A DNA stretch of 64,000 nucleotides from Patescibacteria group bacterium (GTDB lineage Bacteria > Patescibacteriota > Doudnabacteria > UBA920), in the NCBI GenBank assembly GCA_023484515.1, contig JAMDAY010000030.1:1320-65319 (forward strand), read 5' to 3'. Every line of letters starts with the position of its first letter. The first letter of the stretch is position 1. Positions 1,022 to 45,062 of this stretch are shown in pieces. The notes beneath the pieces are model-generated. The model searched no databases and was not told the DNA's origin. It worked only from the letters and a program-made list of their open reading frames with translations. The position numbers and the translations under genes are program-made.

Positions 1022-1098
1022 AGCTACGAGTTAAAACTGACTTAATTTTAACACAGGGCTTTACAAGAGGCAAAATTTGTGCTAAAATAAGAGTAGAT

Positions 1099-4000
1099 GT
1101 GCATCGGATAGGCAAGGACAATAGCCAAAACAAGGCAAATTGCCTACAAAAGTCTACTCGAAGCTTTATAACCTGTTTCTCCAAAATTAGGGAAATCGGT
1201 TTACGAAACCAAAATAAAATCAAAAATATGTCCCCACAAAAGCGGCAATTATTGCTGGCTTCGGAGCATTTAATCCCCCTGTCCGAAGCGGCTAAGCTTA
1301 CTCCATATAGCGCGGAGTATTTAGGGTATTTGGTCAGGAAAGGTAAAATCGAAGCTATAAAAATGTCCCGCGACTGGATGACTACCAAGGAAATTGTTCT
1401 TGAATATACCGGAGAACAAGAAGGGCGGCAAAGAAGGCTGTTTGAACGGTTTCAGCAGGTCAGCGCGGTTAGCCAAGCCGGCTTTATTGCGTTTAAAACT
1501 TTATTAGGAACGATATGTTTGGCAATTATTGCCACGGAAAGTGTCTTGATTGGCGGCGCGGTACATTTGCAACCGAGAAATCTTTTGTCTGAAACAGCGC
1601 ACCAAATTTATTTTAAAACATCATCTATTACAAATAAGTCGCTAGCCGTGGCTGGCAGTTATGCCGGTTATTTTAACGCCGAGCTGGACCGGACGATTTT
1701 AGCTCTTGGATTAAATATAAACAGTGACTTGGAAAGCGCGGATTATTTGGCGTGCAGCTTGGGATATCAAACTAAGCAGTTAGCCAAAAATTTAATTACC
1801 GACGTCAAAGCGCCGTACATTGCTGCTGGCGATGTTATTCGTTCGGCCCTTGGCGAACAAGCAACGCAAGCTGCCTGGGCTTTTGGCAATGCCAAAAGCG
1901 GATGGAACCAAATGGCTTTATTTTATAATAATCAGTTAAGTGTAGTGGCGCACAATGCAGCACACATGGCAAAACCAGCTGTCTCAAACAGCTGGAATAA
2001 TGTGGTAGAAAATGTGGGGCTGTTGGATAAACTTGCCGGAAATAATTTTAGTACAGACTCTTATGTTTCCAAGGATAGTCATTTGATTTCAGGATCACAG
2101 GTCGTAGCCCAAAATGACACAAAGGGTAAAGTCCTCGGTAAAACTATTTCTGTTAAACCAGCTGTTCCGACTGCCAGCAAAATCGCCACTGTCAAACCGA
2201 AAGCAACAGCCATTAACCAAAGACCAAAAACTCAACCCGTTAAATCCGCAGTAATAACTTATTCAGCCGCTGACCCTAGTTACATAAACCAGCTTATTGA
2301 CTCCCGCTTAAACCAGTATCTGGCGGCAGGTAAGTTCAAAGGCGCAAAGGGCGACAAAGGCGATGCGGGAGGAATGGTTACCGGCAGCAACGGCCAGCAG
2401 ACCGTGGCGGTTGGCGGCTATCCTTTAGTCACTTATTATCCTTCCAACCCCGCCCAAAACTTTAGCGGTGCGTCGCTTGCCGGATTTACGGACTTGTCTT
2501 CCAATAATTTTTCCACTGGCAAGGCAACCGTTAGTAATACTCTAACCGTAAGTGGTGCGGCCTCTTTTCTTAATACCGCTTCCTTTGCCACTACTACCAT
2601 TTCTTCCTTGGCAGTTTCCGGTACAGCCACATTGCCAAATATTGCCACTACCACTATCTCCAGCCTTACGGTCTCCGGGCCCGTAACTCTTTCCGGTTCT
2701 GCTACTATTGTAGGTTTGACCGTAACCGGCTTAAATCCGGGGCTTGCTTTGGGCAGCGTGGCGTTCCAGGGAGATGCCGGTCTTGCGGAAGACAACAGTA
2801 ATTTTTATTGGGATAAAACCAATCACAGGCTGGGTGTAGGTACTAGTTCTCCGGTTACTGCTTTGCAGGTTGCAGGTATCGCGACGTTGTCAGGCCTGCA
2901 AGTTTTTGGCAACTCAACTACGACCGGCAACCAAGTTATTGGCGGTAATAATTCAGTTTCAGGCAACCAAAATATTTCCGGGCTTTCCAGTTTAGCCACC
3001 ACAACCGTTACTCGCCTTACTGCCACAGGTTCCACGACCATCCAAACTTTAACCGCTGGCGTGGTCCGTTCCACTTCGGGCGGAGATTTATTTGTCGGTC
3101 AAATTAATAACGCCGATTTAGTCAATTCGTCCCTGACAGTCACGGCTGGGACGGGATTAACCAGTGGTGGCAGCGTGTCTTTAGGCGGCTCCACTTCTTT
3201 GGGCGTGGCTTATGGAGCGGCACTGGGCACAGCGGTACAAGGTAACACTCAATTAACCGTAACAGCCGGTACTAATTTGACCGGCGGTGGCACTATTACT
3301 TTGGGTTTGGGCGGCACTTTGGCTTTAGCCGTTTCATCAACCCCAACCTTTACCACTATAAATGGGCTGACATTAACAGCAGGCACCGGAACACTGGCTT
3401 TAAATAATAATACTTTGACTGTTACCGGTAATTCCACGATCAATCAAAATTTAACCACAACTTCCACGCCAGCCTTTACCGGCCTAGCTGTTAATGGGAT
3501 ATTAACTGTAACGGGCGCGTCCAATTTAGCAACCGCGACCATTACTTCCCTGGCCGTTTCCGGCCCTGCCGTGTTAAGCGGTTCAACCACCATTGCCAGC
3601 TTAACTGTTTCCGGAATATCAACTTTGCAAAATTTAAATTTTGCAATCGCCACGGGCACCAGTTTGACTGTACTTTCTACCAGCACGTTAAATTCAGTTT
3701 TTGCGGTTAGCCTCACCGTTACAGGTACCAGTACTTTGGCAACTACCTCTGTTACAAATCTATCCGTAACAGGTCCGGCAGTCTTTAATTCCTTAACCGC
3801 CAGTGGTACCGTGTTCAGCAGCGCGAATTTAATCGGCACCACCACCTCTTACGGGCTTTTAACCATTCAGGGCAGCGGCACTTCTTCTCCGTTCACCGTG
3901 CTTTCCGCGCCTGACGCTTCTTCATCAGTCAGCACAATTTTGGCCGTCTCCAGCGTCGGCAATATTAGTATGGGTTTGGCGGCCACAACCAGCACCAGTT

Positions 4001-5379
4001 CATTGGTTTCCCGTTTGAATATAACCGGCGTGGGTACAACTACGGCTTCTTCTTCCTTGAATATCCAGAATTCTGCCGGACTGGCGCTTTTATTTGCCCG
4101 TAATGACGGACAAATAGGCATTGGCACCACCTCGCCTAATGCCACGCTCGCCATTCAGGGTACCGCCGGTTCCACGGCCCAGCTTTTTGATGTGGCCTCT
4201 TCCACCGGCATTTCCTATTTCCATATTACTTCCTCCGGCCAAGTCGGCATTGGCACCTCCACGCCCGCCGCGCTTCTGTATCTTTATTCCACCTCCACCA
4301 GCACGCCGTTATTTGCCATTGCCACTGCCACTAACGCCAGTATTTTTAATATCTTAGCCAACGGCTATACGGGAGTCGGGAAAATTCCGTTGCGTCCTTT
4401 GGATGTTAATGGTATTGCCCGGGCCGATAGTTTTGAACAAAACTGCCCAGCCGGATATATTTGGGTTCCAGGCTCGGCCAAATACGGCACGCTTCCCGGT
4501 TTTTGCGCTATGAAATATGTCGCTTCTTCCGATGGTACTACTAACTGCAATGGCGCCGCTTGTCCGGTGTCAACAGCCGCTAATTTGCCGTGGGTTTCCA
4601 TTAATTGGAACCAGTCCCAAACCGCCTGCCAGTCTTTGGGTCTGAATTATCACCTTATTTCCGACCAGGAATGGATGACTATAGCCGACAACGCGGGCCA
4701 TACGCCGATTAACGATTTAGACAGCGCCGCGGGTTTGCAAATGGCCAATGGCCACAGCGACAACGCTCCGGCCAATGCTTTGGCTTCTTCGGCAGGCAGC
4801 GATCCGGTAGTTTCCGGCTGCAATTTGAACAAACCTATGTATGACGCCAGTAATGCTTATGTTGCAGGTTCTTGCGAGATCCGCGGGGCAGGCAGCGGCG
4901 GTTATACGGATGCGGATAAAGGTTATTATGGCACCGGCCAGCAATACGCCACCACCGGATATTCTTCCGGCGGCTCTAACAGTTCCCAAATGCGCACCAA
5001 AGTTTTGAGTAACGGCACCGTGATTTGGGATATAGGCGGTAATGTTTGGCAGTGGACCGACGCTTATATTTACAGCGCCACTTCCACCGAGCCTACGGAA
5101 ATGCCAACTCCGGCTGACCAAAACTGGCACAATTATTCGTCTATTACTAATTATAAAGGCCTGAATTATATTCGTCCCTGGTTGCAAACTTTAACCAGTT
5201 CTAACGGTATAGGTCAAATCTATACCAGTAATACCAATGCTGATGACGGTAGCGGTTACCACGCCTTCGAACGCGGCGCCGGTTGGGGCATTGGGTCGGC
5301 TGCCGGGGCCTTTGCCCTGATTCTGAACTATGGTCCGTCCTTTACGTTCGGCGACATTGGTTTTCGGTGCTCCCGTTGA
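1099..5379 (+). CDS. DGR target protein: 1426-aa surface protein with N-terminal HTH-like segment, one TM helix, long Thr/Ser/Gly/Leu-rich beta-helix-like repeat region, a short collagen-like GxK run, and a C-terminal C-type-lectin/FGE-sulfatase-like domain carrying the variable region
   Basis: Long ORF. The N-terminus (SEAAKLTPYSAEYLGYLVRKGKIEAIKMSRDWMTTKEI) resembles an excisionase/MerR-type HTH. A TM helix follows (LGTICLAIIATESVLIGGAV). The central region has hundreds of residues of LTVTGxSTL-type repeats and one GAKGDKGDAGG run. The C-terminus has the CLec/FGE hallmarks WNQSQTACQSLG, HLISDQEWMTIA, GGNVWQWTDAYI, ERGAGWGIGSAAGAF and IGFRCSR. The last 120 nt are the VR. An alternative start exists at ATG 1225 (MSPQKRQ). 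Confidence 0.85.
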   Translation: MHRIGKDNSQNKANCLQKSTRSFITCFSKIREIGLRNQNKIKNMSPQKRQLLLASEHLIPLSEAAKLTPYSAEYLGYLVRKGKIEAIKMSRDWMTTKEIVLEYTGEQEGRQRRLFERFQQVSAVSQAGFIAFKTLLGTICLAIIATESVLIGGAVHLQPRNLLSETAHQIYFKTSSITNKSLAVAGSYAGYFNAELDRTILALGLNINSDLESADYLACSLGYQTKQLAKNLITDVKAPYIAAGDVIRSALGEQATQAAWAFGNAKSGWNQMALFYNNQLSVVAHNAAHMAKPAVSNSWNNVVENVGLLDKLAGNNFSTDSYVSKDSHLISGSQVVAQNDTKGKVLGKTISVKPAVPTASKIATVKPKATAINQRPKTQPVKSAVITYSAADPSYINQLIDSRLNQYLAAGKFKGAKGDKGDAGGMVTGSNGQQTVAVGGYPLVTYYPSNPAQNFSGASLAGFTDLSSNNFSTGKATVSNTLTVSGAASFLNTASFATTTISSLAVSGTATLPNIATTTISSLTVSGPVTLSGSATIVGLTVTGLNPGLALGSVAFQGDAGLAEDNSNFYWDKTNHRLGVGTSSPVTALQVAGIATLSGLQVFGNSTTTGNQVIGGNNSVSGNQNISGLSSLATTTVTRLTATGSTTIQTLTAGVVRSTSGGDLFVGQINNADLVNSSLTVTAGTGLTSGGSVSLGGSTSLGVAYGAALGTAVQGNTQLTVTAGTNLTGGGTITLGLGGTLALAVSSTPTFTTINGLTLTAGTGTLALNNNTLTVTGNSTINQNLTTTSTPAFTGLAVNGILTVTGASNLATATITSLAVSGPAVLSGSTTIASLTVSGISTLQNLNFAIATGTSLTVLSTSTLNSVFAVSLTVTGTSTLATTSVTNLSVTGPAVFNSLTASGTVFSSANLIGTTTSYGLLTIQGSGTSSPFTVLSAPDASSSVSTILAVSSVGNISMGLAATTSTSSLVSRLNITGVGTTTASSSLNIQNSAGLALLFARNDGQIGIGTTSPNATLAIQGTAGSTAQLFDVASSTGISYFHITSSGQVGIGTSTPAALLYLYSTSTSTPLFAIATATNASIFNILANGYTGVGKIPLRPLDVNGIARADSFEQNCPAGYIWVPGSAKYGTLPGFCAMKYVASSDGTTNCNGAACPVSTAANLPWVSINWNQSQTACQSLGLNYHLISDQEWMTIADNAGHTPINDLDSAAGLQMANGHSDNAPANALASSAGSDPVVSGCNLNKPMYDASNAYVAGSCEIRGAGSGGYTDADKGYYGTGQQYATTGYSSGGSNSSQMRTKVLSNGTVIWDIGGNVWQWTDAYIYSATSTEPTEMPTPADQNWHNYSSITNYKGLNYIRPWLQTLTSSNGIGQIYTSNTNADDGSGYHAFERGAGWGIGSAAGAFALILNYGPSFTFGDIGFRCSR

Positions 5380-5407
5380 GGCTGGTTGAGGCGGGTTCGC
5401 GAGGGGT
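5260..5407 (+). repeat. DGR variable region (VR) at the 3' end of the target gene, with the IMH region extending past the stop codon
   Basis: This 148-bp segment aligns base-for-base with TR 6575-6722. All of about 17 mismatches fall at positions where the TR has A (A->G, C or T). The 3' part (attggttttcggtgctcccgttgaggctggttgaggcgggttcgcgaggggt) is identical in both. The stop codon TGA lies at 5377-5379, inside the invariant IMH. Confidence 0.9.
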
Positions 5408-5497
5408 TTCCTGGAAATTTAGCAATAACTTAGTTTAAAGCCCAAAATTTTGGAACCGTAAGAACGGTGAATCTAAAATCAAAAATCTAATAATCTA

Positions 5498-5538
5498 AAA
5501 AACCCGCCCCTTCGGGGCGGGTTTTCAAAATTTTTTTA
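5498..5538 (+). terminator. Rho-independent terminator downstream of DGR target gene
   Basis: The sequence acccgcccc-ttcg-gggcgggt forms a GC-rich hairpin followed by ttttcaaaattttttt. Confidence 0.8.
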
Positions 5539-5596
5539 TGGTTCTACGTCAAAATATAATACCTATTCCAGTTTTGCCATTTTTCATAGCAGAAAA

Positions 5597-5896
5597 TTAA
5601 GGAGTTTGCGGAAATGGTTCCAAAGAAAGGATGTCTTTGGCTTCTTTAGTGGAAATGATTTTGTTTTTTTCCAAAACTGATACCAAGGCCAAAAGCTTGC
5701 GGTCTTCTTTTTTTATCAAAACGGTGAGGTCGCCTTTCAAATCCAAAAGCTTTTCGTCCAGATAATCTTTGGTGACCATATTCTGCTCAATTTTTGTGAC
5801 CCGGCTCTCAAGTCCGTCAAACCTTTTTTCCACTTTATTGGAAAACACTTGGACTGCTTCCAGCACGTCGCTGATGGTTGGTTCGTTTTTTGGCAT
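5597..5896 (-). CDS. hypothetical small coiled-coil protein
   Basis: ORF 5597-5953; the likely start is MPKNEPTISDV at 5896. The product is predicted charged and helical (LESRVTKIEQNMVTKDYLDEKLLDLKGDLTVLIKKEDRKLLALVSVLEKNK). It sits between the DGR VR and Avd on the opposite strand. Confidence 0.45.
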   Translation of the reverse strand: MPKNEPTISDVLEAVQVFSNKVEKRFDGLESRVTKIEQNMVTKDYLDEKLLDLKGDLTVLIKKEDRKLLALVSVLEKNKIISTKEAKDILSLEPFPQTP

Positions 5897-6121
5897 ATGT
5901 TTATATGTTAGTATCCGTAATTGCAGTATAGGCCGCCTGGTTTTGGTTGTCAATCATAATCCGCAATTATCAAGACGGCAAACGCGCTAAAATCTTTCAA
6001 GTTTTCCACTTTTTATTATTTGGATAATGTTGTAAAATAAAAATAAGCGCTAAAGCGATTAAAAACCCGAGAAACAAAAAGCAAGAAAATTTGCGCTACA
6101 TAATTGAAGGAGGATTTTTTT

Positions 6122-6493
6122 ATGTTGTCTGATTTGTTAGTCTTTCAAAAAGTTTACGAGTTCGTGCTGTGGGTTAAGCCAACTGTCCAGCGGTTTGAAA
6201 GGGTACATAAATATAGTTTAGGTCAGCAATTGGAGAATGAAACTTTGCAGCTGCTCAAAGACGTGGCTAGGGCCAACTTAAAGCGCGATAAAGCCGCAAG
6301 TATAGAAGACTGCCTGGTGTGTTATGAATTGGTTAAAGTGCTGGTTCGATTAAGCAAAGATTTTAAATTATTGAGCATAAAACAATACGAATTTGCCGCA
6401 GTCAGGCTTGACGAAATAGGCAGGCTTTTAAACGGGTGGAAAAATAAATTCGGCAATATAAACAAGCCGCTTTCGCTCCAAAAGAATACTTAA
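6122..6493 (+). CDS. avd: DGR accessory variability determinant (Avd)-like four-helix-bundle protein
   Basis: A 123-aa ORF preceded by a GGAGG box 8 nt upstream of ATG 6122. It lies between the VR and TR, the usual Avd position. Its sequence (FQKVYEFVLWVKPTVQRFERVHKYSLGQQLENETLQLLKDVARAN) follows the same pattern as the four-helix-bundle/IVS-protein family member at 57764-58186 (FPKEEMFGLAIQIIRAAVSITSNIAEG). Confidence 0.65.
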   Translation: MLSDLLVFQKVYEFVLWVKPTVQRFERVHKYSLGQQLENETLQLLKDVARANLKRDKAASIEDCLVCYELVKVLVRLSKDFKLLSIKQYEFAAVRLDEIGRLLNGWKNKFGNINKPLSLQKNT

Positions 6494-6574
6494 ACAAATT
6501 ATAAGCCGAAAGTCCGTAATTACGTTTATGGATTTTTCGTTTATGGTTTTACGGATTTTAGGGACAAAGCGAAT

Positions 6575-6722
6575 AACGCCTTCAAACGCGGCGCCAATTG
6601 GAACAATGGGTCGAATGCCGGGGCCTTTGCCCTGAATCTGAACAATGGTCCGTCCAATACGAACAGCAACATTGGTTTTCGGTGCTCCCGTTGAGGCTGG
6701 TTGAGGCGGGTTCGCGAGGGGT
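6575..6722 (+). repeat. DGR template repeat (TR)
   Basis: This non-coding 148-bp copy of the VR is adenine/AAC-rich (aattggaacaatggg, ccaatacgaacagcaac). It differs from the VR only at A positions and shares the GC-rich IMH-like 3' end. It lies between Avd and the RT. Confidence 0.9.
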
Positions 6723-6979
6723 GGGTAACACCCTGGCCAAGAAATTGGCCTTGCTGGAATTTTTATCTCCTACGGGAATAAAAAGAGAGCACTATAAACC
6801 CCAGCTTTGCTCCTTCTTGAGTAAGCCTTTTTGGGCTGAAAGGGAAAATATGGGCCGTTACCCCAAAAGCGTAAGGATTATCTTTCGGGTTTGGGTAAAG
6901 TAAAATAGGTCCTTTCGTGGGATGGGTATTTTCTACGTCGTCTTTATGGGCCGGGAAGATACCCATCTTGCTATATTAT

Positions 6980-7996
6980 ATGTTCAACAAAGTTTGCAGT
7001 TTCGAAAATCTCTATCAGGCATACATAAGAGCCCGCAGATGCAAACGGCAGCGCGATTACGTTTTGGAATTTGACGCCCACGCCGAAGAGAACCTGCTGG
7101 CCTTAAAAAATGAATTAAAGGAAGGCAATTATTGCCACGGCGGATATAAGGAAATGGTTGTCTGTGATTCCAAAAAACGGCTTATTAAAGTCGCGCCTTT
7201 TAGGGACCGGATTGTCCACCACGCCTTGTGCGCGGCTATTGAGCCAATTTTTGACAAAGGCTTTATTTTTGATACGTATGCCTGCAGGAACGGCAAGGGT
7301 ACGCACAGCGCCGTAAAAAAGCTGCAGCAATTTTTGAGGCAGCCGGAAGCGCGGTATTGTTTGAAATGCGACATATCCAAATATTTTGCCAGCATTGACC
7401 ATGAAATATTATATCTTCTCATTTGTGAAAAAATAACTGACGAAAACACTTTAAAACTTATCAGGAAAATTATAGATTCCAGCTATGACCGCCTTGTTTA
7501 CGAGGATTTATTTACCGTCCGCAAGACCGGTATTCCGATTGGCAACCTGACTTCCCAATTGTTCGCCAATATTTATTTAAGCGAGTTAGATAATTTCGTC
7601 AAGCATAAACTTAGGGAAAAATTCTATTTGCGGTATATGGATGATTTTTTGGTGCTGGGAAATGAAAAATTACGGTTGGGGCGGATAAAATCCATAATTA
7701 GGCAATTCTTGAGCAGCCGGATGCGCCTTGTTTTGCATCCGAAAAAAGCTGAAATTTTTCCGGTGCGTGGCGGGGTGGATTTTTTGGGTTATAAAGTTTT
7801 TATTAATTACAGACTGCTGCGCAAGAGCACCGTGCGGAGGTTTTTGGCAAAATACCGGCGCGGCAGAAAGCTGGTGAGTTCGGGTAAGATGGAAGAAAAA
7901 ACTTTACGCGATTCGGTACGGTCCTGGCTGGCTTACGCCAAATTCGGCAACTCTTGGAAACTGCGCCAAGAGTTGCAGATTAAGTGGCTGAAATGA
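6980..7996 (+). CDS. DGR reverse transcriptase
   Basis: The RT motifs are present: KCDISKYFASIDH, the DGR-specific IGNLTSQLFANIYL (IGxxxSQ rather than group-II QGxxxSP) and YMDDFLVLG. The N-terminus (FENLYQAYIRARRCKRQ) is typical of DGR RTs. The ORF opens at 6917, but the likely start is M 6980. Confidence 0.9.
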   Translation: MFNKVCSFENLYQAYIRARRCKRQRDYVLEFDAHAEENLLALKNELKEGNYCHGGYKEMVVCDSKKRLIKVAPFRDRIVHHALCAAIEPIFDKGFIFDTYACRNGKGTHSAVKKLQQFLRQPEARYCLKCDISKYFASIDHEILYLLICEKITDENTLKLIRKIIDSSYDRLVYEDLFTVRKTGIPIGNLTSQLFANIYLSELDNFVKHKLREKFYLRYMDDFLVLGNEKLRLGRIKSIIRQFLSSRMRLVLHPKKAEIFPVRGGVDFLGYKVFINYRLLRKSTVRRFLAKYRRGRKLVSSGKMEEKTLRDSVRSWLAYAKFGNSWKLRQELQIKWLK

Positions 7997-8042
7997 ACTA
8001 AAATATAAGCTTGTAAATTTTGAAAAACGCTCCTGAAGGAGC

Positions 8043-8070
8043 GCTTTTTCGTTATCTCTGGCAAAAATTC
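8043..8070 (+). terminator. Rho-independent terminator after DGR RT
   Basis: The sequence acgctcc-tgaa-ggagcgc forms a hairpin followed by tttttcg. Confidence 0.75.
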
Positions 8071-8235
8071 CTTTTGCTTACCTTAGGGCTTCCCATTGTA
8101 ACTCTGGGTTTTTGGCCGTCAAGGGTAAAACCTTTTTATCTGCCGTCAGCCATAAATCGGTTTTAATCCCTGTGACTGCCAAAACATTCCAGAGTTCTTT
8201 TGCTTGCCATAACAAGTTAAGCAAAAAGGAGTTTT

Positions 8236-8718
8236 ATGGAATACCAAATCAACATAAATTACCAGTTCACGGCCGAGAGCGAGGCTGAGGCCAACGACAA
8301 GGCCAAACAATACCTCAGCGATAACCTCACGGTTAAACCTTTGCCGGAGTCCATACTCAGCCCGCTGGAGGTAGCCGCAAAGTGCCAGGATTTCCGAAAG
8401 AAAAAGAAAGAACACTTCTGCGTCTTTTTCCTGGATACCCAAAACCACATTCTTGGCCGAGAAACGGTCAGCATTGGCACGCTGAATGCCAGCCTGGTCC
8501 ATCCCCGAGAATGTTTCCGGACGGCGATCGTAAAAACCGCGGCTTCGGTCATTTTCGTCCACAACCATCCCAGCGACAGCCTGGAGCCGTCTCCCGAAGA
8601 CCTCCAAGTTACCAGACGACTAAAAGACGCCGGAAAACTTCTGGGTATTGAGGTGTTAGACAACGTGATTGTCACGGCCGAAGCTTTTGTCAGCATGAAA
8701 GAGCGAAACCTCCTTTAG
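8236..8718 (+). CDS. radC: RadC-like JAB/MPN domain protein
   Basis: The sequence VIFVHNHPSDSLEPSPEDLQVTRRLKDAGKLLGIEVLDNVIV matches the RadC C-terminal JAMM-like domain. An AAAAAGGAG box lies 6 nt upstream of the ATG. Confidence 0.8.
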   Translation: MEYQININYQFTAESEAEANDKAKQYLSDNLTVKPLPESILSPLEVAAKCQDFRKKKKEHFCVFFLDTQNHILGRETVSIGTLNASLVHPRECFRTAIVKTAASVIFVHNHPSDSLEPSPEDLQVTRRLKDAGKLLGIEVLDNVIVTAEAFVSMKERNLL

Positions 8719-8807
8719 AAAGCTACTAAAGGAGGAAAATATATGGTAATGCGCTTTACCCCAGCCCACCCGTGCGTGCGCATTTATCTATAAACTCCCA
8801 ATAAGTA

Positions 8808-9353
8808 TTACTGCAAGAGTATTTCCGCAGTATTGACTTGGCTGTTGCAGTTGACGAGTAGGTGGATCGGTAGGTTTTTTTGGTTCAGCGCAACCAAGAC
8901 GTAATTGTAAGCGGCCACCGAATACGAATGTCCGGCAACAGTAATTGTTTGTGCTGCGTTGGAACGGTTATCCAGCATGATTGTGACAAGGTTAGCAATA
9001 GCCATTTGGCTCGGAATAGCCTGACAGCTTGAGTTGAATTGTATGCGGGAACTTGCGTACTTAACTACCGTGTCGCCATAACTGAGGGGCTTGGGCGGGG
9101 CAGGTTTTGGTTTGCGGAATGGAATAAACTTGCTAGCCGGAGTAGATGTATTAATCGTATCCGCAGTAGAGGTTGCGGCTTGGGTGGGCGCAGGGATCTG
9201 GTCTTGTACGGGAACGATTGCTGTGATTTTCACTATTGGGGTTTTTTGGGTAGCCAGACGCTTAGGCCTTTGCCTTTCGTAGGTTATTGAACTAATAATA
9301 ATCATAATGACAGCCACAGTCGCCCAAATTATTGCCTTCGTGTTTTTTGTCAT
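8808..9353 (-). CDS. hypothetical membrane-anchored protein (last gene of T4SS-like operon)
   Basis: An N-terminal TM helix (AIIWATVAVIMIIISSITY) is followed by a Pro/Thr-rich linker and a C-terminal domain. The gene is co-directional and contiguous with the upstream T4SS-like genes. Confidence 0.5.
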   Translation of the reverse strand: MTKNTKAIIWATVAVIMIIISSITYERQRPKRLATQKTPIVKITAIVPVQDQIPAPTQAATSTADTINTSTPASKFIPFRKPKPAPPKPLSYGDTVVKYASSRIQFNSSCQAIPSQMAIANLVTIMLDNRSNAAQTITVAGHSYSVAAYNYVLVALNQKNLPIHLLVNCNSQVNTAEILLQ

Positions 9354-9369
9354 AAGTTCAATAAAATAT

Positions 9370-10128
9370 TTACTTTTGCCAATCGCTTAAGCTGGTTTGG
9401 GTAAAAGCATAAGCCGGGTCTATGGGCTGGCTGCTTCGCCACAAGGCAAAGTGCAAGTGTTTGCCCGTAGCCCAGCCGGTGCTGCCTTGCAGGCCAATGA
9501 CTTGTCCTGCTGTGACTTTGTCGCCAACTGCCAGCGGCGGCTCGGTTGCCAAGTGGCAATATTGGCTTGAGAGTGAGTCCGCATGGACAATGATAACTTC
9601 ATAGCCGCAGCCATATTGCACGTCAGCGGCTTCTTTTACTTGGTACCAACAAATGCCGTAGTCGTTATCGTCACAAAATTTCCAGCGTCTTGTTGTGTTT
9701 TCTAAAATATTGCTGTTTACCGCTGCTACTGTTCCGTCGGCAAAAGCCCGGACTTCAGTTTGCCTGGGCTCGTAGTCAGCCATGTCCCAAGCAACATGCA
9801 ACCGCCCGACTTTTGCCGAGGAATCTAGAATTACGCCTTGCGTTAATGACCCCAAGGTCGGGAAAGCATACGGGTGCTTAAAGTCATACCAGGTCTCGCC
9901 GTAAATGGTTTTGTAACTAAAGCTTTGAAATTCGGCAAACTGCGCTAAATTGGGGTTTACCGTGCCGTCTGCAACTTTGCCGTTGCCCTGCAAGACCGCA
10001 ATAATAGTTGCCAAAACCAGATACAAGATAAAGGCGGCGCTCAAAGTTAATAGTGCCAGCCACAGCAAAAATCGCTTAATTCTATTCCTGTTGGCATAAA
10101 GGGTGTAGGCGGCCTGAGCTGGGTTCAT
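9370..10128 (-). CDS. M23/LytM family metallopeptidase (cell-wall hydrolase) with N-terminal TM anchor
   Basis: The C-terminus (GDKVTAGQVIGLQGSTGWATGKHLHFALW) matches the M23 peptidase signature. An N-terminal TM helix is present. Confidence 0.8.
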   Translation of the reverse strand: MNPAQAAYTLYANRNRIKRFLLWLALLTLSAAFILYLVLATIIAVLQGNGKVADGTVNPNLAQFAEFQSFSYKTIYGETWYDFKHPYAFPTLGSLTQGVILDSSAKVGRLHVAWDMADYEPRQTEVRAFADGTVAAVNSNILENTTRRWKFCDDNDYGICWYQVKEAADVQYGCGYEVIIVHADSLSSQYCHLATEPPLAVGDKVTAGQVIGLQGSTGWATGKHLHFALWRSSQPIDPAYAFTQTSLSDWQK

Positions 10129-10142
10129 AAGGCAATAGATAA

Positions 10143-12542
10143 TTAGCGCGGCGGCTTAGTGGTACAAATTAGGTCTTCCTCCTGGCTGCTTTTTATGGAG
10201 AGAGGTATCTTGGAATCATTGATAATGAGCAGGCCTTTGCCAATTTCCAAGCGTTCCAAATAAGCGCGCTCGGGTTTGTTAATATGAACTTTTTCGTTGA
10301 GCTTATCAAAAGAGTCACTGACTTTGTGCTTCATGATCAAGGTCAGGGAAGACTGGTCAAATAAGTCTGAGGTGCGCGCAAACCCGCTGTTGTAATAATG
10401 GTTAATGGATTGGACAATGGTCGTGACCCCCGAGTTGTATTTCCTGCCCCGCAACGCCAAGGAAGCCAGCTTTTCCACAATCAGGCTGGATTGGAACAGT
10501 TGGCTGGCTTCGTCCACAATCAAGCTTTTAAACCGGGCTTTGTTTTTGGGATGGTTAATGTAACTCCAATAACTTTCTAAAATCACGGCCACCACAAAGT
10601 CTCGCTTGTCCACGTACTTTAAGGCAAAAACAATTAAGTCATCGCTGGCAAAATCAATATTTTGCTGCTTGTTAAACAGGTAGTACTGTGGATGCCGCGG
10701 TTCGGTGTAAGACCTTAGGACCGTAAGCAAGTTTTCGATTGTTCGGTTTTTTACCAGCCGGTCAATCTCCCTGATAAAGTCCTTGAGTACCGGTTGGTGG
10801 TTATTTTGGAGGCACTGCTCATACACAGCACCGATAGCTTTTTCCAACTGCGTCATGTCAGTTACGCTGATTTTTTCGTTCTGGTAGAGTTTCTGGAAAA
10901 GCTGCCTGACAAACTCGATTTTTTGCGCCTTGTACTCCGGGCCTGGAATGTGGAAAGGGTTAATGTAATAAATGGATCGATCGGAAAGCTCTATGTATTT
11001 GCCTTTGAGATAACTGGTGACCATTTCAAATTCGTTCTCCACGTCCAGGACAAATGACTGGTAGCCGATCATGCGGCTGCGGATGAGGTCTAGCTTGATA
11101 AAATAGGATTTGCCCGCGCCGGTGGAAGCGATAATTGAGCGGTTGTAGCTTTCCAGCTCTTTAATGTCTATGGTAACCAAGGAGCGGTTGATTTCGTCTA
11201 CGCCGTAAAGGATGCCAGTATTAGAAGAAATTTGTGGGGTAATGAAGGGAAAAGTAAAAGCCGCGACTGAGGTGTCAATGTCCCTGTGGTTTTTGGTGTC
11301 AGTATTGCTTGCGCCCGCAATGAACGTGCCTTTAAGGCCTTCCAGCTGCTCGTAGTGGTAAATCCTGGACTGCATCATTTTGCGGCTTAAGACCCGCTCC
11401 ATGTTCATGTGCACCATGTTTAAGGCCTGTAAGGTACTGGAACGGAACGTAACCTCGATTTTTAAGTCAATGGGCTTGATCTCTGACTTTAAGTATTGCC
11501 TTTCAATCCGTTCCGTGCTTTCCAGCACCAAGTTGTCAGCGATGTTTTTTGGCTTGTGCGCTTGGGTCTCGTCAAAAATTTTGGATTCAATGCGGTGGCG
11601 CTTTTCGGTAATTTTCATCACGGTCTCTTTGGGGTCTTTGCTGGTAAAGGTAAACATAAGGTCTGAGGCGTAAGGGAACATGATGATTTCCTTAAACCAG
11701 TCAATATAGGCATAAGAACCGAGTTCACTAATGAATTCCGATCGCAGGAGGTTTTTGCCGTTAATACTTAACAAATCAATGTTTTCTTCTTCAATAAAAT
11801 CCGGGCTGATTTTGTTAATGATGGAAAACGGCAGGCCTTGCTCTAAAGCCTTTTTGCGAAAGTCCTCAATGTGCCCGTAAAACTGCCGGTTATGGAGGAA
11901 TTTCTCTTCATCCAGGTAAGCCATTATCACCCGGACAAGCTCTTCGGTTTCCATAATTTTGACTTTTAAATTTATAGCCTGGAGCTGCGACTTAAAAGTG
12001 GTGAGGATGGCAATCATGCTTTGCCTGGCTTCTTGGAATATTTCCTGTTCGGTAATCCGCCGCCTTTTTTTGCCATCCTTTTCTTCCCGGCTGACAATGT
12101 CTTTGGACAACGTGTATTTCAGCTCGCTGAATTCCAACAACAGGAAGAATTTTTTGGTGATAATCTCGTAGTCTTTGCTGATGTCCCGGATAAAGTCGGC
12201 GTATTTTTCAAACAGGTCATAGGTGCCCAGGCCGCGGATGCTGTAGGCGTGCTCCAGTTGGCCGATATAGTCATCGGCGTTGGTCTTGCGGGTTTGCACT
12301 AAGACCCGCAGCGGGTACTTTACGTCAATTTCCCTGAGGACCTGCTCAAAGCCTGTAATGGCTCGCTTCTTTTCCGCTTCATCCATGAGGCCAAAGTTGG
12401 CCGGAAAAACTTCCAGGCACATGCGGTATGAGCCGTTCTTCATAATTAGGCAGCCGCCCTTGATGTCCTTGAACTGCCAAAAATTAGCCAGGGTCTGGAA
12501 TTTAGGCTTGGTTTTGAAAAAGAGCTTATTGATAAATGACAT
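10143..12542 (-). CDS. virB4: VirB4/TrbE/CagE-family type IV secretion ATPase
   Basis: A 799-aa protein with Walker A (STGAGKSYFIKLDL) and Walker B-like (SLIVDEASQLF) motifs. Its N-terminal domain resembles the 58204-58917 ORF, and the protein is paralogous to the 59034-60878 ATPase. Confidence 0.8.
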   Translation of the reverse strand: MSFINKLFFKTKPKFQTLANFWQFKDIKGGCLIMKNGSYRMCLEVFPANFGLMDEAEKKRAITGFEQVLREIDVKYPLRVLVQTRKTNADDYIGQLEHAYSIRGLGTYDLFEKYADFIRDISKDYEIITKKFFLLLEFSELKYTLSKDIVSREEKDGKKRRRITEQEIFQEARQSMIAILTTFKSQLQAINLKVKIMETEELVRVIMAYLDEEKFLHNRQFYGHIEDFRKKALEQGLPFSIINKISPDFIEEENIDLLSINGKNLLRSEFISELGSYAYIDWFKEIIMFPYASDLMFTFTSKDPKETVMKITEKRHRIESKIFDETQAHKPKNIADNLVLESTERIERQYLKSEIKPIDLKIEVTFRSSTLQALNMVHMNMERVLSRKMMQSRIYHYEQLEGLKGTFIAGASNTDTKNHRDIDTSVAAFTFPFITPQISSNTGILYGVDEINRSLVTIDIKELESYNRSIIASTGAGKSYFIKLDLIRSRMIGYQSFVLDVENEFEMVTSYLKGKYIELSDRSIYYINPFHIPGPEYKAQKIEFVRQLFQKLYQNEKISVTDMTQLEKAIGAVYEQCLQNNHQPVLKDFIREIDRLVKNRTIENLLTVLRSYTEPRHPQYYLFNKQQNIDFASDDLIVFALKYVDKRDFVVAVILESYWSYINHPKNKARFKSLIVDEASQLFQSSLIVEKLASLALRGRKYNSGVTTIVQSINHYYNSGFARTSDLFDQSSLTLIMKHKVSDSFDKLNEKVHINKPERAYLERLEIGKGLLIINDSKIPLSIKSSQEEDLICTTKPPR

Positions 12543-12984
12543 GGGAGAGGTAGTTGCCTATGAAAGCCAAAAGGAGGAGGCCTAAGGCCAAGGCAATAAA
12601 AATAATAATAAAAGTTTTCATATGGTTTTCTTCCTGGTAAACGAGTTGTTTGGCTTTAAAGCTGGCCGTGCCGCTTGCGGCATGGTGGTGGTAGATTAAG
12701 GCTTTAGGCTGGTTTTTGTAGTAGAAGAAAATAAAGAGCAGGTGACGATAAAAATTTCTGCCATGAATTTCGGCAATGCCGCAAAGCGATAAAGTGGCTA
12801 AAGCAAACATGCCCAGGCCGGTTGGCAGTTGTTTGTCCACTAGGCTAAATACTCCAAGGCCGACAAACAGCGTGGCAATAAATACCAGCACAATTTGTCT
12901 AAGGCCCAATCCCCAAAACAAGGTAACTTTGTAGCCTTCGATGGATTCAGGGATGTCGATTTTAAATGATTTATCTTCGGGCAT
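12526..12984 (-). CDS. small membrane protein, VirB3/PrgI-like candidate
   Basis: A 152-aa protein with two hydrophobic helices. It sits immediately upstream of VirB4 and overlaps it, the typical VirB3 position. Confidence 0.45.
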   Translation of the reverse strand: MPEDKSFKIDIPESIEGYKVTLFWGLGLRQIVLVFIATLFVGLGVFSLVDKQLPTGLGMFALATLSLCGIAEIHGRNFYRHLLFIFFYYKNQPKALIYHHHAASGTASFKAKQLVYQEENHMKTFIIIFIALALGLLLLAFIGNYLSHVIYQ

Positions 12985-13001
12985 AGGGGTTTTGGTTTAG
13001 G

Positions 13002-14312
13002 TTAGCTTTTTAATCTCTTTAACCGGTAATAGAGTCCGGCTCCGGACTGCGCGCCTTTCCTGATGACCGAACGGAAGCCTGCCACTTCAGAGGCATTGGC
13101 AATCTGCTGCAGCAAGTTGTTGCTATCCGCGACAATGGCCATACCAACAAGCATCAAGATTAAATTACCCAAAGAGAAGCCGCCGGAGCTTAAAAACACA
13201 AAAACTATGAGCAGGATCAGCAGGTCAAACATCAGTCCAAAGCTGGTCACAAAAAACTTGTGCCAGAAAATCATAGCCATATTCTTGGTCTCGTTAAAAA
13301 ACAACATGGGCGTGAAAATGGGAGACAAAAGGATCATGATCAGCAGCAGGAAATACCGTTTGGCGTTCCTAAACACCACAAAGCCAAACAGGACAACATA
13401 AACCAGCACAAAGATTGTCAGGCCAATTAAGGCCAGGCCAAAGCTGCCGGAAGAATTCCAGAGGCCGTCGGCAATCAAGGCTTTTAAGGCAATGGTTAAA
13501 CCATTGGCTAGCTGGGTATTAAATAAAAAGGTGGCAAAGGCTTGGGCGGTTAGGATTAAGGCTTCGGCCAAGTACCTGGCCAAAAACACCCCGGCAAACC
13601 CCAGCAATATCTTACCCACGTCTCCCACAAAATCGCTGGAGAAGTCCTGGTCCAAGGAAAAAATTATGGCTTTGAAATAGTGGGTCACCACCAGCAAGTA
13701 GACCCAGGCCAAACCGATAATCTCACTGAGCTTAAGCAGGCTGTTAAAATTGGCAATCTGCTGCAGTTTGCCTGGGGACAGGTTCGGGTCGCTATTAAAC
13801 AGTTCAGCTGGCAGGCTGAATAAAAAATTAAAATTAAATTTTTCCACGACTTTTCCCACCACGGTTCCCAGTCCCCGGACTACTTTTTCAATGATAATGC
13901 CTAAGACGTCATTGATAGTCTTTTTGACGCAGTCAATGGTGTCAACCACAATTAAAATACACTTGGGGTCGGTGATGTTGCTTTGGATGTCACTAATTTC
14001 ACTGCCGAGCAGATTGGTGTTATTAATGTCATTCGTGGAGGGCAGTTTGCCCGTAATGTCCTCTTTAACTCCGGCGTAGAAATTGCTCATGTAGGCTTCG
14101 TGAAAGGCAAAGACAAAGGCTCCGGAAAGGAACAACATAATAAAGCCCACAATTACGGTTTGGACGACCAGGTTGGAGCGAACGACGTCATCGTGCTTGC
14201 CAGTGTTTCTTAAGGCTCCGGCAATGGCAATGACAAAAACACCAACCACCATGCTGATGGCGATTATGGCTGGGACATAATGCGCTAAAACAGCTTTAAT
14301 CAGGTTGTCCAT
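13002..14312 (-). CDS. polytopic membrane protein, VirB6/TrbL-like candidate
   Basis: A 436-aa protein with about 8 predicted TM helices. It lies in a T4SS-like operon between the VirB8-like and VirB3-like genes. Confidence 0.5.
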   Translation of the reverse strand: MDNLIKAVLAHYVPAIIAISMVVGVFVIAIAGALRNTGKHDDVVRSNLVVQTVIVGFIMLFLSGAFVFAFHEAYMSNFYAGVKEDITGKLPSTNDINNTNLLGSEISDIQSNITDPKCILIVVDTIDCVKKTINDVLGIIIEKVVRGLGTVVGKVVEKFNFNFLFSLPAELFNSDPNLSPGKLQQIANFNSLLKLSEIIGLAWVYLLVVTHYFKAIIFSLDQDFSSDFVGDVGKILLGFAGVFLARYLAEALILTAQAFATFLFNTQLANGLTIALKALIADGLWNSSGSFGLALIGLTIFVLVYVVLFGFVVFRNAKRYFLLLIMILLSPIFTPMLFFNETKNMAMIFWHKFFVTSFGLMFDLLILLIVFVFLSSGGFSLGNLILMLVGMAIVADSNNLLQQIANASEVAGFRSVIRKGAQSGAGLYYRLKRLKS

Positions 14313-15240
14313 AATTTATTTGGGAGAGGTTGTTAATTTGTTTACAGCCTTCGTAGCCATATTTAAAATATATTTTTGGAGATTTGGCAAAACCTACGCT
14401 GATCCGGCTAAGCGTGAGCTGGCTGTCCACGCCGTTTTTTTCCAGGATTTCGTTGTCAGCCAAAAATATCCGGTTAGATTGCGAGTCCCGGAGCACCAGA
14501 AAAGAAAACAAGCCTGCGGGCTGGGTCTGGGCATTTCGGGATTTGAGTAAGTCCTTGTCTTCCAGGTTCGGGTCGCGGACGTCCAATATTTTATCCCCGA
14601 TTTGCGCTTTCCAATCCGGGCTCGTTTTTATGAATTCAGCCAGTTTAGCCATGGAAGAATAACGCCAGTCATAAAGCTCAATGCCGGTGGCTTTTTCAGT
14701 CTTGTCATCAAGGTCGCAGACCAAGCCGCCAAGTTTTACCAGAGTTGGCTGGTCGCTTAAGAAGCCCTTATCCTTGGCGTACTGGTAGCGGGCACGGGCG
14801 TGATTTTCCAAATAATTGAAGCTTTCCGGCACGACTGTAGACAAGTCACCGCCGGTTAAAGGCGTCAGGCCGCTGTTAATGAACAGAAGATCTTCGAACT
14901 TCCTGCGGACCAACTCCTGGTTCTTTCCTTCCAGCCACTGCTGCAGTTCGCCCGTAAAAGATTCTACAGTTTGGGTCTGGATTTTTTCCTTGTACGCCTG
15001 GCTTTGCCAATAGGTCTCGTCGGCAATTACCGTTTCCCGGGTCGGAGAAGGTTTTGGGTTGCTTACTTTGGGTTGGGGGGAAATGCGCCAGATTTGCAGG
15101 TAGATTGCCACTGCAAACAACAGGCTAATGTACAAAACCGCCCGCAGGTTAAAGTTGGGAACAAAAGTTTTTACCAAACCATCCAGCCTGTAAAGCCAGC
15201 TATTTCTTTTGGGTTGTTTGGTTTCTTGCTCATCGCTCAT
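14296..15240 (-). CDS. bitopic membrane protein, VirB8-like position (hypothetical)
   Basis: A single N-terminal TM helix (LRAVLYISLLFAVAIYLQIW) is followed by a roughly 250-aa periplasmic/extracellular domain. The assignment rests on operon position only. Confidence 0.4.
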   Translation of the reverse strand: MSDEQETKQPKRNSWLYRLDGLVKTFVPNFNLRAVLYISLLFAVAIYLQIWRISPQPKVSNPKPSPTRETVIADETYWQSQAYKEKIQTQTVESFTGELQQWLEGKNQELVRRKFEDLLFINSGLTPLTGGDLSTVVPESFNYLENHARARYQYAKDKGFLSDQPTLVKLGGLVCDLDDKTEKATGIELYDWRYSSMAKLAEFIKTSPDWKAQIGDKILDVRDPNLEDKDLLKSRNAQTQPAGLFSFLVLRDSQSNRIFLADNEILEKNGVDSQLTLSRISVGFAKSPKIYFKYGYEGCKQINNLSQINYGQPD

Positions 15241-15270
15241 AGGCTAATGTGGTTAATAATTATCTTGGCT

Positions 15271-15642
15271 TTAAGCATTAGACTTTATGCCAACCAGGCC
15301 TAAGACATACAGGATGAGGCCAATGATAAAGATGGCAGCAAAAGTTATGCCCACGCCCACGACCGTGGATCTCAGTCCGGCCTTGGCTTCTTGGGACTTG
15401 ATGGGATCAGAGCCTGAAGACTGCAGCTTAATGCCGTACCAGGCAACCATGATGACCGCGTAGAGGACGGCAATGCCGAAGATGACCCCGATACCGATAT
15501 TGGCAAAATCCCGAACCGGTTTCATTTTATCTGACTCCCAGACTGACATGTCTGGTTTGGGCAGTTCCTGGGCAAGCGCGATTGAGGCGGTTAAAAATAG
15601 GGCGGAGACACTGGCCCCAAGTGAAGCAATAAATTTTTTCAT
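15271..15642 (-). CDS. T4SS pilin-like protein (VirB2/TrbC-like): signal peptide plus two hydrophobic segments
   Basis: A 123-aa protein with a signal peptide (MKKFIASLGASVSALFLTASIALAQE) and two TM segments (IGIGVIFGIAVLYAVIMVAWY and VVGVGITFAAIFIIGLILYVLGLVGI). It lies in the T4SS-like operon. Confidence 0.55.
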   Translation of the reverse strand: MKKFIASLGASVSALFLTASIALAQELPKPDMSVWESDKMKPVRDFANIGIGVIFGIAVLYAVIMVAWYGIKLQSSGSDPIKSQEAKAGLRSTVVGVGITFAAIFIIGLILYVLGLVGIKSNA

Positions 15643-15727
15643 TGTTGTTACGTTAGTGTATTAATAATTGAGATACCCTAAAGATATATTCGCTCTCAGC
15701 TATCATTGGAATAGATGTAATTGTTCA

Positions 15728-16615
15728 TCATAAAAAATTAAATAACTTAATTCTTTGGGTAATTTCAGCTTTGAGCAGCCCGTCTTTACTTAACCTAACT
15801 GTGCTTTCTGTTGCATAAATTGGTTCTAAAAATTGCTTGGCTCCGGCAATTAAGTCCAAGTGGGTAGTGACAATGTTGAGTTTTAGAAGGCCAGGGCGGT
15901 TCATAAAAATATTGAGCCAAAAGGAGCGCTCCATCCCTTGGGTTTGGAACACTAACCGCAGAGTGTATTGTTCAGAGTTTTGCAAAGCAAGAAAGTCCCA
16001 GTACCTTTGGACCTTATTAAGCAAGGATTCGTTGGATTTTCGGGTGCGCTCAAATTCCGTGTAAACTTTGTACTCCGCCTGGCTGGTCTTGTAAACTACG
16101 GTGTAATCGGGGGTTAAGGCTTCCACACGTTTGTCGCTTATATAGTCTTGTGTTTGCGAACTGTCTTCGCCTTTAAAGCTAAAACTTAAATTTGCAGACT
16201 TGTTCAAGCTTTCCAAACTGGCCAGCTCCACGATTTGGGCTTCATGCTTGAACAATCCCCAGGACAGCAAAGTCTTGGCTGTCGGGTAATTTTTCAGGCG
16301 CTGCCACTCATACTGGCCACACTCAGTCAAGACTTTTAGTCCTTGTTTGGAAAGCATATAAAACAGCGAGAAGCCGCCGCCGGAAAAAACCTTAAAGCTT
16401 TCCAAAAGTTTAGCCTGCCACATTCGGCGGAGTTTGGTATACATGTACCGGCTCCGCTCTTTTTGGCTGAGGAACCTGGTAATATGGCAGCTGGAGGCCA
16501 GCCTAAACTCCAAGACTAAAGCCAAAATCTCCAACGCGGACTGGTTTATTTCCACGTTATACGGGCTTACGTTAGCCCTGGGGGTGAGTTTTACGTCAAG
16601 GGTGTTTAAATACAT
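15728..16615 (-). CDS. hypothetical protein (possible winged-helix / relaxation-accessory protein)
   Basis: A 295-aa soluble protein lying between the coupling-ATPase and pilin genes. No decisive motif was seen. Confidence 0.45.
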   Translation of the reverse strand: MYLNTLDVKLTPRANVSPYNVEINQSALEILALVLEFRLASSCHITRFLSQKERSRYMYTKLRRMWQAKLLESFKVFSGGGFSLFYMLSKQGLKVLTECGQYEWQRLKNYPTAKTLLSWGLFKHEAQIVELASLESLNKSANLSFSFKGEDSSQTQDYISDKRVEALTPDYTVVYKTSQAEYKVYTEFERTRKSNESLLNKVQRYWDFLALQNSEQYTLRLVFQTQGMERSFWLNIFMNRPGLLKLNIVTTHLDLIAGAKQFLEPIYATESTVRLSKDGLLKAEITQRIKLFNFL

Positions 16616-16632
16616 ATTTTAGTTTTGCTAAA

Positions 16633-19320: not shown

Positions 19321-19823
19321 AGTAAGCAGAAGTTAAATATTCATGCGTACAGTTACTAGCCCTCCCCGGCGTATTTCTGTCCCGCCGCTTCGCGGCGGGC
19401 AACTCTTCCCCCCATCTTTCCTCTCCAGTCTTTGGGTTTGTTTTTAGGTTTTGGTTTTAGTTAGATATTGGAATTTAGGTATTTGGAATTAAGACAAGAT
19501 AATAGGTTAAGGTAAGAATAGATAGTATTGATGTTTAGTAGAGTTAGTATAGATACTAGTCGTTCAGTTGATTCTCTGGTGAGATAGTAGCCACTGGTAA
19601 GGGATTATTAGAACATCAATAGACACAGGTGATTTAGAAGATTTGCTAGTACAATGGGGTTGCACTATTGGTTGTACTAGCCAGCCGCTGGTTCCATAGC
19701 TCCAGCTTAATAGAAAAATCCCTGATTAGCAAGGGGTAGTTTGCCAGCTTGTCAAGAAGACAAGGCTAGCAGGCCAAGGTCAGGGGTTTTGCATAAAGTA
19801 GGTTTTAGCAGCGTTCAGGATTT

Positions 19824-19950
19824 TCCACCAAGGGAAACTTTCAGGATTTTTAGAATTTTTTTTGGTCGCTTCGCTCCCATTGCAAACGGGGGGAAATGCA
19901 GTTTGAGCCAATATTTCTGCGTGCAAATCCCACGGCGGAAGAAAACGCAA
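19824..19950. repeat. left copy of a perfect 127-bp inverted repeat flanking the recombinase/Ubl cassette
   Basis: By base-by-base comparison, 19824-19950 equals the reverse complement of 24074-24200 over 127/127 positions. Confidence 0.95.
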
Positions 19951-20051: not shown

Positions 20052-20387
20052 TTAATTTACCCAAACGATCTTATTATCTCTAATCCAAAAGTGACTACCA
20101 CAAGTTCCATATCCTCTCCATAAGGACGGCATTAGCGTTACTCCTTTATTGCTTCTTGTTAGTCTCCAAACTGGATAAATGCTTTTCATCAAATTTACTT
20201 CAATTTTATCGCCACAGCCACACGGACAGGAAAATACTAACCACTTTAAGTGACCCTCATTGACTACTATATAAAAATAGGAACCAAGTCTATCTGGTAG
20301 TTCGTTCAACGATTTAATTTCCCTTGCCTGACCTAACTCACTCTTGCGTTGCCACTTTTTTACTAACTCTTTAAGCCAATTAAACAT
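20052..20387 (-). CDS. small Cys-rich protein (CPCGCG ... CGSHF; possible Zn ribbon), last gene of Ubl-E2-E1 operon
   Basis: A 111-aa protein that overlaps the JAB-E1 gene by 8 bp, indicating translational coupling. Four clustered cysteines are present. Confidence 0.5.
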   Translation of the reverse strand: MFNWLKELVKKWQRKSELGQAREIKSLNELPDRLGSYFYIVVNEGHLKWLVFSCPCGCGDKIEVNLMKSIYPVWRLTRSNKGVTLMPSLWRGYGTCGSHFWIRDNKIVWVN

Positions 20388-21762: not shown

Positions 21763-21765
21763 TGT

Positions 21766-44684: not shown

Positions 44685-44686
44685 AA

Positions 44687-45022: not shown

Positions 45023-45062
45023 GATAGAAATTAGGTTTTAGAAATTAGTATTTGGAAAATAT

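Follow-up and report, generated by a model that had tools for sequence, protein, structure and literature searches.

An apparently intact diversity-generating retroelement with adenine-confined repeat differences in a Patescibacteria genome

Does a group of genes near the start of a contig from an uncultured Patescibacteria bacterium form a complete diversity-generating retroelement (DGR), and if so, what does it diversify and is it still working? The stretch of DNA that we analyzed (hereafter the window; 64,000 nt of GenBank assembly GCA_023484515.1, contig JAMDAY010000030.1, positions 1,320 to 65,319) comes from a metagenome-assembled genome (MAG). An initial model reading of its letters, the first-pass annotation, had proposed a complete DGR with adenine-specific mismatches between a template repeat (TR) and a variable repeat (VR), and both the observation and its interpretation are borne out by the alignment of the repeats, by Avd family models, and by comparison of the reverse transcriptase (RT). 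All four defining parts of a DGR, namely a target gene with its VR, an Avd gene, a TR, and an RT gene, were found on a single strand. We are highly confident that they constitute a canonical DGR, in the order target–avd–TR–RT, on the chromosome of a bacterium of the Patescibacteria, or candidate phyla radiation (CPR). That the region is chromosomal follows from the housekeeping genes that the window holds from 25.7 kb onward (SmpB, ArgRS, IleRS, RecO, UvrD, and KsgA) and from its tmRNA gene (24194–24585, minus strand).

The element is an ordinary representative of a class of DGRs that earlier studies found to be abundant in Patescibacteria (PMC8144416, PMC5758913). Its avd product already carries the name DGR protein Avd in GenBank (MCL5667151.1). 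We therefore present it not as a discovery but as a worked example, in which the textbook features of a clean and apparently intact DGR can be read directly from the sequence. Two points are modestly out of the routine, the variable lectin domain that caps what appears to be a 1383-aa membrane-anchored fiber and the conjugation-like secretion cluster that adjoins the cassette.

Template and Variable Repeats

An ungapped alignment of the VR (5260–5407) with the TR (6575–6722), offset by 1315, extends over 148 nt; the two differ at 17 positions, at every one of which the TR carries an adenine (17/17). From TR to VR these substitutions comprise eight A>G, seven A>T, and two A>C, all at the first or second codon position of the frame that ends at the TGA at 5377–5379. 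Tabulation by TR base thus upholds the roughly 17 adenine-confined mismatches of the first-pass annotation, and the three pairs of TR/VR sequence that it quoted occur exactly as written. A repeat search independently returned the same pair (5261–5407 and 6576–6722, 147 nt, 89% identity); for this 147-nt core, the probability that 16/16 mismatches land on 30 adenines is P = 1.5e-13. The pair is the only long direct repeat within the first 12 kb, other short direct repeats there being at chance level.

Changes are restricted to the 5′ part of the repeat, with 17/26 TR adenines changed in the mutable zone (5260–5353) and 0/5 in the identical tail. This tail, earlier put at about 55 bp, measures 54 nt (5354–5407, identical to 6669–6722), and the flanks beyond it diverge completely, as had been described. 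The VR covers the last 40 codons of the target gene plus 28 nt, while the TR sits in the intergenic region between avd and the RT gene. Logan contigs assembled independently from two sequencing runs match the TR at 100% identity, and SRR10267473 and SRR22746125 contain identical avd/TR sequence. Read in the VR frame, the TR contains 11 AAY codons plus AAA, ACG, AGC, and ATT, and these adenine codons allow ~1e16 protein variants. No second VR was found on either strand of the 64-kb window with the adenine-masked TR, whether whole or in 60-nt pieces.

Short direct repeats do arise by duplication, and our search listed several at chance level. One might accordingly suppose that the 3′ end of the target gene was simply duplicated as a segment, that the copies diverged by point mutation or gene conversion, and that an unrelated RT lies beside them by coincidence. 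Yet all 17 differences fall at adenines of one copy (probability ~1e-13), that copy is placed exactly between Avd and a DGR-type RT, and the same arrangement is found in 22 related loci (see below). We consider the probability of a coincidental duplication to be vanishingly small.

Accessory Protein, Reverse Transcriptase, and Spacer RNA

The Avd-like protein predicted to lie between the VR and the TR is encoded there, 5′ of the TR, from the ATG at 6122. Its product scores above the equivalog cut-off of NF033474 (DivGenRetAVD; 82.9 bits vs. 80) and well above that of PF22296 (bAvd; 6e-21, 75 bits vs. 40), and matches phrog_3206 (“Avd protein of DGR”) at 4e-21. A pI of 9.5, as computed for this protein, is typical for Avd (PMC5758913). 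Searching the Avd sequence against the PDB returned no meaningful matches.

The RT gene likely starts at the ATG at 6980, not at 6917 as in the longest open reading frame (ORF), and the resulting 338-aa protein is identical to a GenBank protein of “Patescibacteria group bacterium.” The RT contains the two motifs that mark the DGR clade ([I/L/V]GxxxSQ and YxDD), as IGNLTSQ, whose presence the first-pass annotation had noted, and YMDD. Its best PDB match is 8ub7_A, a 328-aa RT (215.8 bits, E = 9e-63), whereas group II intron RTs reach at most 84.9 bits. The numbering of 8ub7 matches the residues named in the bRT–Avd cryo-EM preprint, suggesting that it is the Bordetella phage bRT; of these residues, the RT described here keeps K29, R74, I76, I181, G182, and Q187 and has Met in place of F66. 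By sequence comparison, the earlier placement of the RT in the DGR clade, rather than with group II intron or retron RTs, is therefore well supported.

Other prokaryotic RT models also match the protein, including TIGR04416 (158.5 bits), Drt3a (70 bits), the retron model NF038233 (49 bits), and several PADLOC RT models, so that it could in principle be a group II intron, retron, or defense-associated RT beside a repeat of different function. But the scores of the group II, retron, and defense RT models lie far below their curated cut-offs (for example, 300 for TIGR04416 and 235 for NF038233), and Rfam detected no group II intron or retron RNA in the window, its sole match being the tmRNA. Membership of the group II intron and retron classes is thus contradicted by both the protein scores and the Rfam result. 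Furthermore, the putative bRT is the best solved homologue by a 130-bit margin, and a dedicated Avd is present. Assignment of this RT to another class is, in our judgment, extremely improbable.

The spacer between the TR and the RT gene appears to encode a structured RNA (Table 1). In a related strain (contigs L005 and L002, SRR22387967), the TR differs from that of the window at non-adenine positions while the AAY pattern is kept, and the spacer retains ~95% DNA identity between the window and L002, although protein identity between the two RTs is only 78%. Because MAFFT aligned the spacer hairpins unreliably, we compared helices by folding each sequence separately. The helices recur in 10 relatives with different but complementary sequences. 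All 10 have a tetraloop-type hairpin equivalent to that at 6760–6784 but built on another stem sequence, and further helices covary. An Avd-binding stem–loop just 3′ of the TR has been reported for 207/278 Avd-containing DGRs (bioRxiv 10.1101/2023.10.23.563531), and by analogy the 6760–6784 hairpin matches this published element. Separately, a long and very stable hairpin occupies 6917–6971, just 5′ of the RT start codon, and has no counterpart in L002, whose spacer is otherwise conserved.

Target Protein and Activity of the Element

The target gene was first described as encoding a 1426-aa surface protein from the longest-ORF start at 1099. A target gene of probable surface-protein type stands, but its likely start is the ATG at 1228, giving 1383 aa. 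The protein combines a helix-turn-helix-like N terminus, a single hydrophobic segment (aa 83–114) that is predicted to span the membrane, ~950 residues of Thr/Ser/Gly-rich repeats, and a C-terminal domain of the C-type lectin (CLec)/formylglycine-generating enzyme (FGE) type. The motifs on which placement of the VR in such a domain had been based, GNVWQWT and IGFRCSR, are indeed located in the target C terminus. Pfam and NCBIfam found nothing on the full target except a sub-threshold FGE-sulfatase match at the C terminus, and the C-terminal domain sequence had no meaningful matches in the PDB. Since profile searches remained below threshold, the fold was settled by structure prediction; in the predicted model the C terminus is a CLec/FGE fold, closest to the DGR variable protein TaqVP, and the variable residues are placed on this C-type lectin fold, as in other DGR targets.

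Comparison with homologues points the same way. In an alignment of 54 homologues, variability peaks at the columns of the 11 AAY codons (mean 3.25 bits vs. 1.32 bits for adenine-free codons, P = 2e-6), while the intervening residues (R, G, W, G, P, and GFR) are nearly invariant, which is the pattern of variable positions on an invariant scaffold expected of a DGR-diversified lectin fold. The last 326 residues of the target have 151 homologues, many with PF03781 and many with prepilin N termini; those with named sources come from Patescibacteria lineages and one Nanohaloarchaeon. The N terminus and stalk have a different distribution, with 3299 homologues among 1.84 billion representatives. These are mostly giant proteins (800–7600 aa) that share the N terminus, and a related lectin domain stands at the end of 4 of the 150 best. 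From this architecture we infer that the target is a membrane-anchored surface fiber with a variable binding tip. If the fiber mediates contact with a host or partner cell, the element would offer a handle on variation in attachment specificity among ultra-small episymbionts. Another giant ORF (49089–53354, 1421 aa) was considered as a paralogous target and rejected, having no similarity to the DGR target.

By analogy with the Bordetella phage model, the avd–TR–RT unit would be transcribed, the structured RNA that follows the TR would recruit the RT–Avd complex, and the TR would be reverse-transcribed with misincorporation opposite template adenines. Guided by the unmutated 3′ segment common to both repeats, the cDNA would then take the place of the VR at the 3′ end of the target gene and re-randomize the 15 adenine-containing codons listed above, which would lie on the ligand-binding face of the C-type-lectin-fold tip. 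The likely purpose would be to alter what the cell, probably an episymbiont, binds. It is from this model that we infer the cDNA synthesis and homing steps, present-day activity, surface display, and a ligand.

Is the element active? The lack of any non-adenine difference between TR and VR, the intact genes, and the constrained RNA together suggest that it is, and the first of these, extending over 148 nt, argues for recent copying from the TR. Several observations weigh against an active, canonical element. The case for activity is indirect, and a scan of JGI metagenomes for population variants with the adenine-masked TR skeleton gave 0 matches. The VR allele of a MAG may represent a population consensus rather than the allele of one cell. 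The AAA codon of the TR is able to mutate to a stop codon. The first-pass annotation had assigned an initiation of mutagenic homing (IMH) site and its counterpart IMH*; an unmutated shared 3′ segment is present, but VR and TR are identical to the end of homology, so that IMH and IMH* are indistinguishable within it. Such identical pairs do occur in some DGRs (PMC5758913). Finally, no G+C-rich inverted repeat directly follows the VR, the nearest strong hairpin (5499–5525) being ~92 nt away, terminator-like, and probably the terminator of the target gene; an inverted repeat in this position is found in only 34% of DGRs (PMC5758913).

Some of these points would fit a decayed or currently silent DGR, in which mutagenic retrohoming has ended and the VR is a frozen allele: the metagenome scan yielded no VR population variants, no hairpin adjoins the VR, and a 715-nt insertion-like gap with an antisense ORF parts the target gene from avd, unlike in most relatives. 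A silent element is nevertheless hard to reconcile with zero non-adenine mismatches in 148 nt, with intact avd and RT frames that keep the catalytic YMDD and the SQ motif, and with a spacer RNA that is more conserved between strains than the RT protein. We regard silence as distinctly unlikely.

The antisense ORF in the gap (5597–5953, minus strand, up to 118 aa) lies between the target gene and avd and has no family match. The highest-scoring promoter-like match of the region (11/12) is at its 5′ end, and the ORF shares the bidirectional terminator at 5499–5525. Its conservation in the related strain is poor (49% over 41 aa), and in most relatives the gap itself is missing.

When Logan was queried with the exact proteins, every contig retrieved was broken at the segment that TR and VR share. 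Two of these, from SRR10267473 (L001 and L003, corresponding to window 6693–19435 and 5378–6722), break exactly inside the 54-nt shared segment. A short-k assembler would be expected to break here, and this may account for the frequent truncation of DGR targets in such data.

Table 1. Positions of the DGR components and of associated predicted signals in the window
Feature	Position	Strand	Remarks
Promoter-like site upstream of target gene	1060–1088	+	TTTACA-17-TAAAAT with TG; consensus scan, 10/12; consensus match only
DGR target (variable protein) gene	1228–5379	+	1383 aa; identical to GenBank MCL5667149.1 (hypothetical protein)
C-terminal CLec/FGE-type ligand-binding domain (predicted), carrying VR	4399–5376	+	
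VR, mutagenized part	5260–5353	+	17 substitutions vs. TR, all at TR adenines; 13 codons affected
VR 3′ segment identical to TR (IMH-like)	5354–5407	+	Spans stop codon; ends in 71% G+C stretch
G+C-rich hairpin plus T-run, probable bidirectional target-gene terminator	5499–5525	+	~92 nt after VR
avd (accessory variability determinant)	6122–6493	+	123 aa, pI 9.5; NF033474, PF22296, phrog_3206; GenBank MCL5667151.1
TR, non-coding	6575–6722	+	31 adenines; 11 AAY codons in VR frame
Structured spacer RNA between TR and RT	6753–6912	+	DNA conservation and recurring helices in relatives
P1 of spacer RNA	6753–6790	+	Encloses bulged 10-bp stem with UACG tetraloop, 6760–6784
P2 of spacer RNA	6814–6846	+	Compensatory changes in 4/8 predicted pairs
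Nested helices P3/P4 of spacer RNA	6852–6912	+	
DGR RT gene	6980–7996	+	338 aa; IGNLTSQ 7538–7558; YMDD 7634–7645
Terminator-like hairpin closing avd–TR–RT unit	8028–8043	+	

Relatives, Genomic Setting, and Known Systems

Related elements are widespread in the same host lineages. When one genome per species was scanned, related RTs (33–60% identity) turned up at 32 loci, almost all in Patescibacteria, Saccharibacteria, or Paceibacterota MAGs. By self-comparison, 22/32 carry their own same-strand adenine-biased TR/VR pair, defined as at least 75% of mismatches (often 100%) at adenines of the RT-proximal copy, and an Avd homologue is present in 24 loci, a count that includes other assemblies of the window's own element. 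The nearest RT relatives (52–60% identity) all come from MAGs of these three groups and have adenine-biased TR/VR pairs. While the closest relatives share the order target–avd–TR–RT, in more distant ones (~41% identity) the avd gene is inverted and lies between TR and RT; Wu et al. named these architectures B1 and B3, the latter accounting for 90% of their CPR set (PMC5758913).

Roux et al. 2021 described a DGR clade (clade 2) that is cellular, not viral, in its encoding and confined to Patescibacteria (PMC8144416). A viral origin of the present element was considered and rejected: its best relatives in IMG/VR are only 43–45% identical, more distant than the cellular Patescibacteria relatives, which is consistent with that description. 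In the closest relative, L002 (1492–2919; SRR22387967), the RT gene is followed on its 3′ side by a 274-aa ORF and then by a second, divergent Avd-like gene (130 aa, PF22296), which suggests either a second accessory gene or a neighboring DGR.

Directly 3′ of the DGR, a conjugation-like type IV secretion cluster occupies the interval 8236–19320 and encodes RadC, an M23 peptidase, a VirB4/TraC-like ATPase, PrgI, a type IV secretion pilin-like protein, a relaxase-like Replic_Relax protein, and a VirD4/TrwB-like coupling protein, along with three ORFs without assigned function (181, 436, and 314 aa). Further downstream, a large serine recombinase (22664–24073, plus strand; Resolvase, Recombinase, and Zn-ribbon domains; phrog_95 integrase, 7e-78) abuts the tmRNA gene. 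tmRNA genes are classic integration sites. Judged by gene content, the region from the DGR to the serine recombinase looks like an integrated conjugative element; no boundaries of such an element were found around it.

One possibility is that an integrative conjugative element, brought in beside the tmRNA gene by the serine recombinase, carries the DGR as cargo. The fiber would then be a cell-contact adhesin of the element or the episymbiont, and hypermutation of its tip would retune which partner cells are engaged by type IV secretion. We view this as a speculative and rather unlikely reading. Recipient specificity of plasmid R64 is controlled by a shufflon, and the cargo arrangement, if true, would be a DGR-driven analogue of such control in a Patescibacteria host. 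Type IV secretion genes lie within 6 kb of the DGR in only 2/32 related loci (L008 and L036), where a rough estimate gives about one by chance, and serine integrases occur in 4/32; an association between DGRs and type IV secretion among relatives was therefore rejected as not clearly above chance. In one of the two, a distant Patescibacteria relative (L036, 468–9647), the DGR (VR 5003–5108, TR 5492–5597, RT 6001–6977) has a VirB4 homologue on one side and a coupling-protein homologue on the other, echoing the window.

Several other features of the neighborhood deserve mention. A minus-strand operon at 20052–22417 encodes a DUF6527 protein (111 aa), an E1 (ThiF)–JAB deubiquitinase fusion (460 aa), Prok-E2_E (133 aa), and a weakly Multiubiquitin-like protein (85 aa); by its domain content it is a bacterial ubiquitination-like cassette of a type linked to conflict systems. 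This operon and the serine recombinase occupy 4123 nt bracketed by a perfect 127-nt inverted repeat (19824–19950 and 24074–24200), with the final 7 nt of the tmRNA gene lying within its right arm. The recombinase frame crosses the right arm and runs ~200 nt into the tmRNA gene, and inversion of the segment would stop the frame 44 nt past the arm. The largest k-mer size commonly used by SPAdes is also 127, and the bracketed stretch may be an invertible or mobile segment or an assembly artefact. The tag peptide of the tmRNA is ANAFSKVKTALANAFAFQPAFA. Elsewhere in the window, large ORFs without a Pfam match occur at 43695–47718 and 49089–53354 (329, 261, 627, and 1421 aa).

Among known systems, the gene order recalls the DGR of Bordetella phage BPP-1 (mtd–avd–TR–brt), from which the present element differs in several respects. 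It resides on a Patescibacteria chromosome rather than in a phage, and its target is a 1383-aa apparently membrane-anchored fiber, compared with the 381-aa tail-fiber tip of BPP-1. Its IMH and IMH* do not differ within the shared sequence, the VR is not directly followed by an inverted repeat, and an extra antisense ORF separates the target gene from avd.

In host lineage, cellular encoding, and FGE/CLec-type target, the element resembles other Patescibacteria/CPR DGRs (PMC8144416, PMC5758913). Its architecture sets it apart from the CPR set of Wu et al. 2018, in which 90% are B3, since this element and its closest relatives are B1. Homologous CLec domains usually belong to proteins of 250–570 aa, often with a pilin N terminus, whereas here the domain caps a giant stalk. 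The Thermus aquaticus variable protein TaqVP (PDB 5vf4), closest in predicted fold, shares ~19% sequence identity and, at 381 aa, lacks the long stalk and N-terminal anchor.

DGRs on conjugative elements have been documented in Legionella and Bacteroides (PMC5758913; bioRxiv 10.1101/2024.11.15.621889). Like the present element, the Legionella pneumophila ldtA and Bacteroides type V pilus DGRs diversify a CLec protein, in their case one displayed at the surface and encoded on a conjugative element. The element described here differs from them in its Patescibacteria host and in the probable anchoring of its target by an N-terminal transmembrane segment, rather than as a lipoprotein or on a pilus.

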